Below, piece by piece: positions 19,575 through 62,982 of a stretch of DNA of 64,000 nt (the first letter of the stretch is position 1; each line of letters starts with the position of its first letter). The stretch lies in NCBI GenBank assembly GCA_964016885.1, contig OZ024743.1, forward strand, positions 228,408,001-228,472,000, read 5' to 3'. This DNA comes from Eledone cirrhosa. Its lineage: Eukaryota. The translations under genes and the position numbers were made by a program. Under the pieces are notes generated by a model. That model made no database searches. It saw only the letters and a program-made list of their open reading frames with translations, and was not told the origin of the DNA.

Positions 19575-19709
19575 TTGGTTTTCGCTTTTCGCTTCTGTGT
19601 CTTTTATATCGGTAATCTAATTTATTCGGTCCTCAGTGTTGCCATTGACTGACCAATGGTAAAAAATAATACAGATACAATATAGACACAAACAGATATA
19701 AATAGTTTA

Positions 19710-19749
19710 TCAAAGTTCTTTCGTTGCACATCTGCAACATTGTCAGTGG
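19710..19749 (-). ncRNA. Degenerate minimal hammerhead ribozyme
   Basis: Minus: CCA CUGACAA U GUUGCA-GAUG-UGCAAC GAAA GAAC UU UGA. Stem II is a perfect 6 bp, but G8 is changed to A, loop III is not palindromic and stem I is weak. Confidence 0.4.
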
Positions 19750-19870
19750 TGCTATTGTTTCCTCCCGTTACATTGTATTTTCTACGCCATCTTTATTTAG
19801 TCTGTTTATATATTTATTTATATGTTTATATAAACAGACTAAATAAAGATGGTGTATATATATATATATA

Positions 19871-20219
19871 TTCATTTCATTCATTTCATTTTACGTCCGC
19901 TTTTCCCTGCTTGCAAGGGTGGGACGGGAACTGATTCTGGCTTGATTTCTACAGCTGGATGCCTTTCCTAACACCAACCTCATTTACAGTGAGTGCTGGG
20001 TGCTTTTTTGCCGTGGCACCTCCACGACCACTTTGCAGTGGAATGATAAGGACCCCAGTCCCTATCATCTCATTTCTACAGCTGACTAAACTGGAGCAAT
20101 GTGAAATAAAGTGTCTTGCTCAAGGAAACAACACATCACCCGGTCTGAGAATTTGAGAATTGAACTCACAACCTTTCGATTGTAAGGCCAATGCTCTAAC
20201 CACTAAGCCATGTGCCTCC
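19871..20219 (-). mobile_element. Full-length tRNA-derived SINE, family A (convergent with the 19059 copy)
   Basis: Reverse complement of the 19059 copy with several substitutions and a short internal duplication (TGAGAATTTGAGAATT). Confidence 0.9.
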
Positions 20220-21481
20220 ATTATATATATATATAAATATATATATATATATACACACACACAGATTTCCATACACAAACACACAGAGTTATAGCCCTGA
20301 AAAGAAAGGGATGAGAGAGAATAAGATTGAGCATACATACTTACATATATGCTTGCTTTAAAACTGCTCTCAGACACACACACACATACGTACACACTCA
20401 CTCACAAACACATACACATACACACACGTGTATGTATAGATATACAGAGACATATGCGTAATTTCCAAAACACAAGCACTGAATTACCTTTAAAATGCTC
20501 CGGAGAACACACAAACACACACTCTTGTTGGAGGCTAGGGAGAGCAAGGGACAATAATAGAAGCTCTAAGAAGGAAAGCAGTGTCAAACAGTAAAAGAAA
20601 GAGACTGCAATAATAATAATAATAATAATAATAAAAATAATAATAATAATAATAATAATAATAATATCAATTTAAAAAAAGATGTAGTTGTGGAAGAGAC
20701 TTGATCTATGTGACAACTTGATGTTAACTTCAGAGACAGAGTACACCATGTACATACTGAGCTATTCCCTCTTTTGACATGGCACACACACACACACACA
20801 CACACACACACTCTCCATGAGTGAACACTCACACATACATACACAAAGAGATGGCAAATGCACACACACACACATACACACTCCATGAGATGACAAGCAC
20901 TCACACCATGAGGAGATACACACACTCTCTCTCTCCAAGATAGGACATAAACACAGACTCCAAAATGACACACACACACACACACACACATGCACACACT
21001 TCAAGATATGACAAACACACACACTCAATGAGGGTATGTGCACATACACACTCTCCAAGAGGGGGAAGATACACACACACAAACACACTATCCAAGAGAT
21101 GATAATACACACACCAAGAGAGGACAGGGAATGTTTATGTCAACTGGAAACAACTGAAATGTCCAAAGGCACAAATCGCTTGATATTTTATTGAATCAAG
21201 CAGAACCCAGCCAGCCAACCCCCAATGCTAGGATGCCAGTGTAAAGGATAGAAAGGTAGTAGATGGTAAATGGACATAAAGGGGTGCAGGGGACAATGAA
21301 CAGCAAAAGAAACGAGAAACTTTACAAAGAAGAAAATTGTAAATATCATTTCGGACATCTCTATATATGAGTTGAGGAGACATGTTACTTATATTGCCAG
21401 CCAAAAGAGTTACCAAAACTATTCTCTCATTCTTTTAATGGAAATAATGATTATATATATATATATATATATAGTTAAAAG

Positions 21482-22020
21482 TTAGACGGGAAAAAAACAG
21501 AGGCAGTACAAATAAGAGTTTATTAGGTTCACGCTTTTGAGAGGGGTGGGGTGGAGGGGGGGGGGACGTTTCGGGCATAAGACCTTCATCAAGAGAAAAG
21601 TGGGTAGGAAGAGAGTTCCGAGGGTGTGTGTGGGAGTGGTGGAAAGACGTTTAGAAAAAAAAAAGGGGGGGGGGCAGAAAAGGGAGGAAAAACGATTGAA
21701 GTACAAACAAAAATAAACATAAAAATAAACAAGTGGTTGAAGGGTGTGAGGCGTGTAGGGGTGGTGGCGGGTGGAGTTGAGAGAGGGAGGCGGGGGGTCC
21801 GAGCGGGGAGGGCTGAAGGTGGTGTTTGTGTATGTTGGTAGGTGTACGTGTCTGTGTGTGCGTGCGTGTGGATGGAGAGGGGTCAGAGGGGTGGGGGAGG
21901 GGTATGTGGATTTCGGAGGCTGAGTGTGTATATGTGGGGATGCGCACATGTGTGTTTGTATTTATAAGTGGTTCGAAAAAAATGTGAGTGTTTGTTTGTG
22001 GGTAAGTTCCTAAGGTAGTT
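21482..22020 (-). mobile_element. Penelope-like element 3'/pLTR remnant with degenerate hammerhead core (21565-21595); G-rich on the plus strand
   Basis: Minus: TTGATGA AGGTCTTATGCCC GAAA CG TC, followed by GCGTGAACCTAATAAAC, similar to the tails after the cores at 22203 and 59765. Confidence 0.5.
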
Positions 22021-59659: not shown

Positions 59660-59865
59660 AACATACTTTCTCTCCTCTTTACCATTTTCTCTGTTTTCTA
59701 CTCTCATTTGTCTACCCTTTTCTTCTCTTTCCCAAACATCCACTCAACTTGTTTTTCCTATCTTCTGATAAAGGACTAGCATCTGAAACGTTAATACTCT
59801 TTTTCACCTATATTAAGTGTTAAACTAATACAACATCTTTATACTGTTCTCCTGTATTGTTTTAC
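59660..59865 (+). mobile_element. Penelope-like pLTR remnant with degenerate hammerhead core (59761-59796)
   Basis: TCTT CTGATAA AGGA CTAGCA TCT GAAA CG TT AATA ... GTGTTAAACTAATACA; homologous to 22203. Confidence 0.5.
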
Positions 59866-62724
59866 AGCATTGGCTTATATATGTGTGTGTGTGTGTGTAT
59901 GCATACATATACATGCATGCAACTATATATATATATATATATATATATATATATATATATATATATACATATATATATACATATATATATACATATAAAC
60001 ACAAACATGCACACACACAACATATCAGAGAGTTTATTATTATTATATTATTATTCGTCTTACTAAGGTTATTGTTATTATTATTGGTGTTGTTGTTGTT
60101 AAACTCATCATTATTATTTACAAGCTTTTTTCTTTTAATTTTCTGCACTAGTGAACAGAAGCGACATTAATGTGAAAAGAAGAAAATAAGAAAAAGCCAA
60201 GTTGATTCTACTACCTCCACAACCACAACCTCCATAACAAACAAACCACATTATCATCATCATCGTCATAAGAAGAATGAGGAGAAGGAAAGCTGATAAA
60301 TAGAAATAAACACATGTAGTGTGGTATGGTATAGTGTAGAAATTGTTGATGTCGATGTTGGAGGTGGGTCATCTTGAGAAAAAAAAGTCCTAAGAACAAG
60401 ACAACCAGAACGACAGAAGCAAGGTATGTGGAGAGCCAAGACATAAGTGATTCCTTATGATGTGTGCATGTGTATGTGGTCGTATATATATGTGTGTATG
60501 GGTGTGTGGTCGTATTTATATATGCATGTATATATATATATATATATGTGTGTATATATATATATATATATATATATATTAGTGTGTGTATATGGGCGTA
60601 TGTATGTATATGTATGTGTGGGTGTGCATGTGTGGCCATATGTATATATGTATACATACATACATACATACATACATATATATGTATACATACATACATA
60701 CATACATACATACATACATACAAACGACCATATACAGACACATATATCGTCATCACCATCGTCATTTAACAAACATTAAATGATGATGATGACATATATG
60801 TGTGTTTGTATGGTCATATATATATATATGCATATATACATGTGTGTGTATGTATGATTTTATGTATATACTATGTATGTGTATATGTGAGTGAGTGAGT
60901 GTGTGGGTGGGTGCAGTTAGGGCTAAGACATAAGAGATTACTTATGATGACTAATTAAAACAACCAGATTGAATCACATATTGATAATAAAAAAATAGAA
61001 TAAAAACAAGTAAATATAATACTTCAATTCCACTATCCCATTCACTATCGTGTTCTTGTGTGCTTGTGTGTGCTGGACCTCTGTCAGTTTCATTATTCGA
61101 TCAATGGAACAGCCTACTCAGTTGAAATAGCCAATGTGTGTGCATGTTAAACCTCCAGCAGTTCCAACAAAGAGTGTTCCAGTTAATGTGGACAACAGCA
61201 TAGGTAGCTTATACCATTACCATGCAAGTGGCTGTGCATTCTATAGACATAAATACCCGTAACAAATTTTTAAGTTGGATACAGCATAGCATAGTGTGTG
61301 ACATGGTTGGCCCAGTGAATTTCAGCTACAGTTCATCTGACTGGCTTCTGAAGAGGTTCCCTTTACCTATTTTACTCACAGGCATGGCTTAAGCTGAAAC
61401 TATAGTAAATGACACTTGCCCAAGATGCCACACTGTGTGATGAAACCAAGGGCCTAATGATTGTGGATCAAACTTCTTAGCCATTTGGCCATGATTCTTT
61501 GCATCCAAAACCTGCTGCAACTTACTTGGGTGGTAGACTAAAGCCATCACCCAATCTAATACCTCTGCTTGACCCCTGCATTTCTTTTGCAGAGATTCTC
61601 CCCACCCTACATATTTCTCTTTCTAAAATCTCTGACTTGTATTGTAGCACAAGTTGATGGTGATAATATAAATCAAACAATATCCAGAATTTCAACAGAT
61701 TATCTGAGAACACAATCCTATAATAATGATAGTGATGATGATCATGATGATTCTTTCTTACATTGGTAGAAGGCCAGCAAGTTGAAGGAAGGGGAAAGTC
61801 TATGTCAAATCCTATACTTAAGTAGCGCTTTATTTTATAAACCACAGAAAGATGTAAGTCACAGTTGACCTCAGCAGGATTTGAACTGGAACAAATGCCA
61901 CAAAGCATTTTGCCCAACTTTTTAACAATGCTTCCAATCCACATACATAATAACAATAATTACAATAATAAAAACAATAACAACAACAAAGATAATACAA
62001 AAAAAAATAATAATGGCCCTTTCTTATATGGAGATGATTTATGTAGGTGTGAAATGAGTCTTGTAAGATTTATGGCTTTACCAAAGGAATAAGCAACAGT
62101 AAGCAATATGAAATGGTTCCACTCAAGAGTATGGCAGCAGATTTTGGTTTGCTTTCTTTAATATATAAGAAGCAATTTTATTTTATAATTTGTTTTTCAT
62201 TTGGTGAATTGACAAATATAACAAATGTTTAACAAATTGACCCCAAAATATTACTGATTATACTACACTATACTACAATGTGTATACTTACAGCATAACA
62301 TTTCTCATATCAAACTGCTTGAAACCAGTCTTAGTTCTATGATAGGAAACTGTTTACATTTTGTTCGTATTTATCTGAAAGCCTTCCATCATAATATAAT
62401 TACAGATTCATAGATAGATATTCTAGCTAGACAGATATAGACAGACAGATAGGTAGATTAGATTAGATAGATTATATATATAATATATATATATATATAT
62501 ATTATAATATATATATATATTATAATATATATATAATATATATATATATATATTATAATATATATATATATTATTATATATATATATATTATTATATATA
62601 TATATATTATTATATATATATATATAATATATATATATATATATATATATATATATATATATATATATATATATAAAATAAAGTTAAATAAAAGTCAAAT
62701 GATTAAAATTTAGCTTCGCTTATT

Positions 62725-62779
62725 ACTGCTATATATATTTCAGTGACAGCCATCTTTGGCTGTGACCTCTTCAGGCAGT
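62725..62779 (-). ncRNA. Minimal type-I hammerhead ribozyme (best-preserved core in the window)
   Basis: Minus: ACUGC CUGAAGA GGUCACAGCCA-AAGA-UGGCUGUCACU GAAA UAUAUA UA GCAGU. Stem I is 5 bp, the core is the canonical CUGANGA/GAAA, stem II pairs at 10 of 11 positions, and stem-loop III is palindromic. Confidence 0.75.
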
Positions 62780-62809
62780 TTGAATTAGTATGGTATAGAC
62801 AAGTACATA

Positions 62810-62982
62810 TGTTGTTTAGGTGTATAATATTGTCAATACTCTGATATGCCCAGTTCCTTGTTGGGTTGTTAATTCACTGAGGAACTGGAGTCATATTATG
62901 ACTCCAGTTCCTCAGGGAATTAACAACCTAAAAAGGAACTGGGCATATCAGAGTATTGACAATATTATACACCTAAACAACA
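62810..62982. repeat. 173-bp near-perfect palindrome (86-bp arms, 3 mismatches, centre 62896)
   Basis: TGTTGTTTAGGTGTATAATATTGTC...GAGTCATA T TATGACTC...GACAATATTATACACCTAAACAACA. Confidence 0.95.

Follow-up and report, generated by a model that had tools for sequence, protein, structure and literature searches.

A 64-kb window of the Eledone cirrhosa genome (contig OZ024743.1, positions 228,408,001 to 228,472,000; 34% GC) contains four short inserts, each an inverted duplication beside a TA run and each with all or part of a hammerhead ribozyme motif. We are highly confident that they are the 5'-truncated 3' ends of four coding families of Penelope-like elements (PLEs), each lying head-to-head with an inverted, partial second copy that likely arose from the same template while the element was inserting into (TA)n. 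Family membership, continuity with endonuclease and reverse transcriptase (RT) sequence, TA flanks, a one-sided tail, variants shared between arms and preferred 5' stops were all observed directly. Throughout, the window means the whole 64-kb stretch, and the families are named A, B, C and D after the inserts at 19.7, 24.8, 44.1 and 62.7 kb.

Continuity with coding elements

All four inserts are multicopy in the 3.0-Gb host assembly. An earlier note, made from the letters of this window, had foreseen a large genomic population and proposed a copy search; no insert came out single-copy. First-look searches gave 890 (D), 2575 (B), 3344 (C) and 2029 (A) candidates, which are not copy numbers, and 40 were scored in each family. 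The copy samples used below are the best 30 of 40 scored matches per set, with a bias to young, query-like copies. Because whole-insert queries prefer look-alikes, families D, B and C were searched a second time with the 3' part alone; the A query contained no tail. Duplicates were left out, as were loci without an anchor (10 B and 1 C in the first sets, 1 B in the second).

Longer copies of the inserts lead into PLE genes. They extend 5' through a 3' untranslated region (UTR) into a GIY-YIG endonuclease in all four families and into the RT core in three (A, C and D), and it is on this ground that we identify the inserts as truncated ends of coding PLEs. Family A has an RT with YVDD (Pfam RVT_1, E 1.9e-4, below the cut-off) and an endonuclease, recognized by motif only, in loci L103 and L211. 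In B, thumb, linker and GIY-YIG lie in L224, with a Pfam GIY-YIG match above the cut-off (E 1.1e-5). Locus L226 holds a near-full but broken open reading frame (ORF) of C, with a YRDD RT and a GIY-YIG recognized by motif only. The D endonuclease, in L214 (Pfam E 0.0033, below the cut-off), is reached after about 1 kb of UTR and the RT, with YRDD in L212, beyond it. Overall, Pfam matched RVT_1 or GIY-YIG in three of seven proteins, once above the cut-off, and supports most pieces weakly; a PDB sequence search with the D RT piece gave no match at E up to 1. Among 25 C loci fetched by ORF start, 22 had the tail end directly before that start, which makes a partial-tandem pseudo-long terminal repeat (pLTR). 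The earlier note's link to PLEs and their hammerheads is upheld, and the extension it had suggested did recover PLE reading frames. Its picture of separate, tiny, non-coding, retrozyme-like families is not supported, since all four run into endonuclease-coding sequence in other copies and short copies do not cluster apart from long ones on trees of low resolution.

Linker motifs divide the families into two pairs. The linkers CNCRNSESC (D) and CNCRIKSNC (C) are of the CxCX5C type, and CTNRKCIIC (A) and CGRSNCGTC (B) of the CX2-5CxxC type. By these motifs, the criterion used here in place of an RT tree, C and D would be Hydra-like PLEs and A and B PLEs with Neptune/Nematis-type linkers. In the available part of PMC8557442, the Hydra clade resembles C and D in its linker, C-terminal GIY-YIG, canonical hammerhead and (TA)n insertion, and C also has DKT (for DKG) and RWR; Neptune and Nematis resemble A and B in a CX2-5CxxC linker before a C-terminal GIY-YIG, and either clade would suit these two. 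A CCHH motif was not apparent by eye in the C and D translations, read without alignment to reference elements. All four are probably uncurated members of known PLE architecture.

End points, tails and targets

Two 3' end points, 60–97 nt apart, are fixed in every family, and in two-armed copies one arm stops at each. Exactly one tail was present per two-armed copy in D (18 of 18 in the tail-anchored set) and in A (all 11 resolved copies); in the first D set, from which the tail-less window copy was left out, 15 of 16 copies had one tail and the remaining copy two. Either arm can carry it. Of the 11 A copies, 5 had the tail on their shorter arm and 6 on their longer one; of the 18 D copies, 4 had it on the shorter arm and 3 on the longer, and in 11 the arms were within 10 nt of each other. 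Where the shorter arm bears the tail, the difference in length reaches about 1.3 kb.

TA runs are the common target. The 3' end was accompanied by (TA)4 in 108 of 119 sampled copies, compared with 10% of random window positions, and a check for target-site duplications found TA runs flanking the copies; the TA targeting that the earlier note proposed is well founded. Inverted ends within TA runs, together with many D copies of near-equal size, would also be expected of foldback DNA transposons resembling miniature inverted-repeat transposable elements, with terminal inverted repeats and a TA target. We find this origin barely credible, given the variable 5' truncation, the one-sided tail, the continuity with RT and GIY-YIG and the lack of fixed symmetric termini; nor did any transposase appear in the ORF listings.

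Three families stop at preferred 5' positions, about 150–220 nt upstream of the tail-less end. Inner ends of tail arms cluster near -222 in D (11 of 30), -150 in B (19 of 29) and -170 in C (16 of 30), and these clusters include copies that have no inverted arm; A shows no cluster. In D the cluster falls on a natural TCATATGA palindrome; an exact-pattern count at this single site gave 497 palindromic junctions, and 1423 arms that continue past it. The inserts range in size from about 300 nt up to several kb. Their loop letters, lengths and small patchworks vary between copies, so each junction must have formed separately. A reading of D as a fixed 440-bp palindromic unit was dropped after 3'-anchored searches gave long and asymmetric copies. 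Short tandem re-copies also occur at arm junctions, of about 50–60 nt in the B locus L158 (oriented positions 1000-1500) and 16 nt in the C locus L187 (1270-1430), which suggests repeated polymerase slippage.

Sharp stops raise the question of whether the short palindromes are a class of their own. They might be non-autonomous solo pLTRs with their own promoter, mobilized in trans by PLE proteins. The hot spots of B, C and D and the one turn point common to 497 D inserts are what such a class would produce, and pLTR derivatives exist elsewhere, as Chlamys (PMC8557442) and as retrozymes (bioRxiv 10.64898/2026.07.22.740005), going by the parts of these sources at hand. We nevertheless consider it unlikely. 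Short and long copies carry the same subfamily variants, and both subtypes of D, C and T, occur in short palindromes and in read-through copies alike. On trees of the 3' region the short and long labels changed about as often as in shuffled data (D, 8 against a mean of 7.4 over 23 rows; B, 10 against 9.6 over 29; C, 6 against 6.4 over 26), a low-resolution test that showed no clustering. The copy-specific junctions, the wide range of sizes and the lack of a hot spot in A also argue against it. As truncated ends of coding PLEs, the short inserts are probably dead-end products.

The inserts in the window

The inverted-duplication layout beside TA runs is real in all four inserts. The main arm of insert A (19504..19829, minus strand) is a 5'-truncated 3' end that stops at the tail-less end point and matches longer copies reaching GIY-YIG and RT at 97%. 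Its inverted arm (19827..19856, plus) is a 30-nt copy of the inner end whose own outer end halts early at TA. Insert B opens with an inverted arm of about 150 nt (24806..24957, minus) that finishes at the tail-less end point, passes through a patchwork junction (24958..25006) made of a second short re-copy and unrelated bases, and continues as a sense arm (25007..25216, plus) that runs from the 5' hot spot (-150) through a hammerhead (25045-25080) to a 64-nt tail.

Inserts C and D follow the same plan. The inverted arm of C (44071..44139, minus) starts at the tail-less end point, with an arm of about 66 nt (44071-44136), and carries a deletion of about 34 nt that is mirrored in the sense arm (44132..44337, plus); the latter has half a hammerhead, with CTGATGA at 44189 and the GAAA half deleted, and then the tail. 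The D sense arm (62674..62896, minus) begins at the TCATATGA hot spot, reaches the tail-less end point and is 99% like long copies, and its 86-nt inverted arm (62897..62982, plus) has an outer end that halts early, unlike most D copies. The earlier note had seen the TA runs and the inverted arms correctly, with about 145 nt for B. It had placed the 3' end of A at 19575, where the actual end is near 19504, and had taken the inserts for whole units with their own tails; they are pieces of longer elements, and the window copies of A and D lack the family tail.

Origin of the two arms

The two arms of a copy share variants. The D subfamily marker, a C or T letter scored per arm by exact-pattern count, was the same in both arms of 48 of the 50 first-listed palindromes (26 C, 22 T, 2 mixed), against about 25 mixed expected if arms were independent, and all 19 of the longer head-to-head pairs that occur in the first 100 rows listed agreed in subtype. 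Diagnostic columns were concordant between arms in D (0.73 against 0.08 shuffled; 0 of 2000 shuffles) and in C (0.37 against 0.06; 0 of 2000). Arms in D differ by 1.1% within a copy and by 2.2% between copies, and the deletion of about 34 nt in C is confined to the window copy, where both arms have it. Agreement in subtypes and diagnostic columns, with the mirrored C deletion, leads us to derive both arms from one source.

The palindromes are very improbable as fold-back artefacts of library preparation or assembly. Long TA flanks block short-read checks at the level of the locus and so leave room for this explanation, but the arms of one copy differ by 1–5% and their outer ends halt at two fixed, different positions of the element. 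Raw reads from restriction-site-associated DNA sequencing (RAD-seq; three runs, one study) also carry strand-change joints at most 2 nt from the D turn point, in 11, 6 and 5 reads, and in two of the runs 258 and 146 reads continue past it with long-form-like letters. This is a family-level check with short reads, and reads mapped to the full palindrome fit both arms ambiguously; the diverged arms and fixed outer ends weigh more strongly than the joints. RNA runs, with a query-word share of at most 0.07, were not used as evidence.

By a narrow balance, we favor two cDNAs as the source of the two arms. The element endonuclease would cut both strands of the TA run and the RT would copy the element RNA, mostly halting early; for the second arm, a further cDNA would be started at the other cut end, from a second RT start site, and the two cDNA ends would be joined where a few of their bases, such as TCATATGA, are complementary. 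We lean this way over pure fold-back because, in the available text of PMC11167929, a PLE RT starts in vitro at two sites, one on each side of the tail, and the protein, a predicted dimer, cuts both DNA strands. Nearly an even bet, in our judgement, is a PLE-specific twin priming in which a dimeric protein would cut the two strands of the TA run, prime two cDNAs on one RNA at the tail-bounding sites and join their ends through short palindromes. In L1 twin priming, two primed cDNAs joined by microhomology give rise to a 5' inversion. The inverted part is not duplicated in L1, whereas here the same region is present twice.

A single cDNA that snaps back, copies itself and is later trimmed is a serious possibility for the second arm, if short of even. 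We give about the same standing to its general form, in which every inverted arm is one cDNA folding back, the endonuclease trims one tail and central deletions later produce the asymmetry. The private C deletion mirrored in both arms fits it, as do 10 mirrored substitutions private within the D sample, the natural palindrome at the D turn point and the short inverted arms with early outer ends (A and D in the window; loci L094, L112 and L118). Self-priming has been proposed before (PMC3846280). But under a single fold-back the longer arm should bear the tail, and it is the shorter one that does so in 5 A copies out of 11 and 4 D copies out of 18, over differences of up to about 1.3 kb; where later deletion is invoked, hundreds of perfectly centered palindromes remain undeleted. 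The earlier note's idea of fold-back copying therefore survives in part: arms from the same template and the mirrored C deletion suit it, and copies with the tail on the shorter arm are not simply explained.

Several results weigh against truncated coding PLEs with a second cDNA as the account of all four families. For the window copies of C, A and D, snap-back, or later conversion and deletion, is the better fit, and the C deletion in particular favors single-cDNA copying or later conversion over two independent cDNAs. The 5' hot spots would also fit a short, pLTR-only RNA. Family B showed thumb and linker, and no RT core contiguous with the family was seen. Its arms were not concordant (0.23 against 0.25 shuffled, with a query-biased CpG as the main column), concordance in A was borderline (72 of 2000 shuffles), and in both A and B arms of the same copy were no closer than arms of different copies. 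The 3'-region trees have almost no supported branch, leaving room for a young short-only sub-lineage, and two of the B labels counted as long (L170 and L175) come from spurious low-complexity matches.

Hammerhead motifs

The D hammerhead is complete. It occupies 62725..62779 on the minus strand as a minimal type I motif with a 5-bp stem I, CUGAAGA, a long stem II, GAAA and a UA-repeat helix III, and the lowest-energy fold of this strand has hammerhead geometry (z -2.71; 2 of 200 shuffles as good). Insert B carries its core in both arms (24882..24917, minus strand, in the inverted one); the core counts as complete only if the U3-A8 variant (TTGAAAA...GAAA) is allowed, and it comes with a palindromic CCGG helix III and a stem I of 3 bp. 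In C only CTGATGA is left at 44.2 kb because the deletion of about 34 nt removed the GAAA half from both arms. The motif of A (19719..19746, minus) has a stem II and the core CTGACAA (CTGACGA in the family), and no stem I beyond 2 bp was found in the window copy or in the family copies. Thus the earlier note was right about a complete core at 62.7 kb and about CTGATGA alone at 44.2 kb; the core it called complete at 24.9 kb is so only as a variant, and that at 19.7 kb is incomplete even in the family. Lowest-energy folds of the window motifs of A, B and C were non-significant (z -1.7 to 0.1).

Conservation across copies is stronger evidence for these motifs than their occurrence in the window. 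The core is intact in 26 of 30 D, 29 of 29 B and 25 of 30 C copies, and is present in 26 of 30 A copies, there without a clear stem I. A minimal-hammerhead descriptor, run on the window and on 60 shuffled versions of it, gave three window matches, all within inserts, against a shuffled mean of 0.23 and a shuffled maximum of 3; the chance test is modest evidence alone. Rfam named no hammerhead among the 150 of 336 window matches listed, which were microRNA-type hairpin noise, and nothing reached the gathering score in locus L125. Judged by sequence, and in D also by fold, the hammerhead of D appears intact and that of B intact as the U3-A8 variant. The motif was probably inherited from the pLTR and is probably not needed at these loci.

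Three further observations concern hammerheads. Just upstream of insert C, between TA runs at 43920-44010, lies a decayed hammerhead-like motif (CCGATGA ... GAAACCTA) that had no relative among the fetched loci. The stem II of the C and D hammerheads (window 62742-62767 for D; L064-type copies) has a C-C mismatch at the fourth pair in both, in otherwise unrelated sequences. Raw-read depth rises several-fold over the D hammerhead (62707-62786) with unrelated flanks, and many more PLE families therefore probably have the same motif.

Neighboring repeats

Other repeats border the inserts or share their layout. One repeat family, 94% alike between its two inverted copies, stands on both sides of insert A (19057-19389 and 19881-20221) and matches 61 fetched loci. 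Short 3' ends about 86% like family A, one of them with a tail, lie directly after insert C (44359-44438) and at 8817-8893, and PLE ends thus appear to accumulate in shared TA runs. At 63431-63900 a common repeat forms a tail-to-tail palindrome with 235-nt arms, 97% complementary, centered on a TA run with mirrored imperfections; it resembles a duplication formed by fold-back at a TA tract. Further inverted repeats occur at 23347-23475 (87%), 29832-30051 (73%) and 56411-56786 (64%), where the descriptor found no hammerhead, and a 1.9-kb array at 39551-41498 is built on an 8-nt-based repeat (TGAAGACA).

Relation to known elements

The inverted truncated copy, the one-sided tail, the hammerhead and the (TA)n target are all published PLE traits. 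The accessible text of PMC8557442 describes PLE insertions that are truncated at the 5' side, lie next to an inverted and likewise truncated copy, carry the tail at either end and show a (TA)n bias, and that of PMC3846280 reports palindromes at the inverted junction. Together these sources also give endonuclease-bearing PLEs the partial-tandem pLTR, the pLTR hammerhead and AT-rich microsatellite targets seen here. The families differ in their tails, of about 60–97 nt against the 30–40 nt reported there, in a 3'UTR of up to about 1.1 kb between ORF and pLTR, and in sharp 5' stops that yield hundreds of near-identical short palindromes. Minimal hammerheads 100–700 bp apart on opposite strands have been ascribed to truncated PLEs (PMC4209133, in part); like ours, they have a reduced helix III, a long helix II and, as in B, the U3-A8 variant, a likeness that on our side is read from sequence.

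Retrozymes are relatives of a different build. Non-LTR retrozymes share type I hammerheads of PLE pLTR origin with the inserts, according to the available part of bioRxiv 10.64898/2026.07.22.740005, but they are head-to-tail tandems of non-coding, ORF-less units, whereas the arms of the inserts face each other head-to-head and the families they come from are coding; one B locus, L158, does contain a partial core in local tandem. Recently active octopus repeats include Penelope-like families (PMC13282606), and the available part of that paper mentions neither ribozymes nor palindromes. Literature searches for Penelope with twin priming and, since 2014, for a self-priming or inversion mechanism of Penelope-like elements returned unrelated papers, judged in the first case by title and abstract; most subscription papers and supplements lay outside their scope, and the idea may be in print.

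What this genome adds is copy-level evidence on how the inverted arm forms, which leans somewhat towards two-site priming over a single fold-back without proving it. The formation of inverted PLE structures is called an open question in the text at hand of PMC8557442, and there lies the mechanistic value of these copies: the genome offers hundreds to thousands of young ones, in four families, and their arm lengths, tail side and mirrored variants are open to counting. For annotation, short hammerhead palindromes in TA runs, which give weak microRNA matches in Rfam, are to be read as truncated PLEs, not as small-RNA families, miniature inverted-repeat elements or microRNA hairpins. If PLE twin priming is true, a single step would account for the head-to-head palindrome, for the tail on one side only and for the agreement of the arms, and the mechanism would seed the genome with thousands of hammerhead-bearing hairpins.

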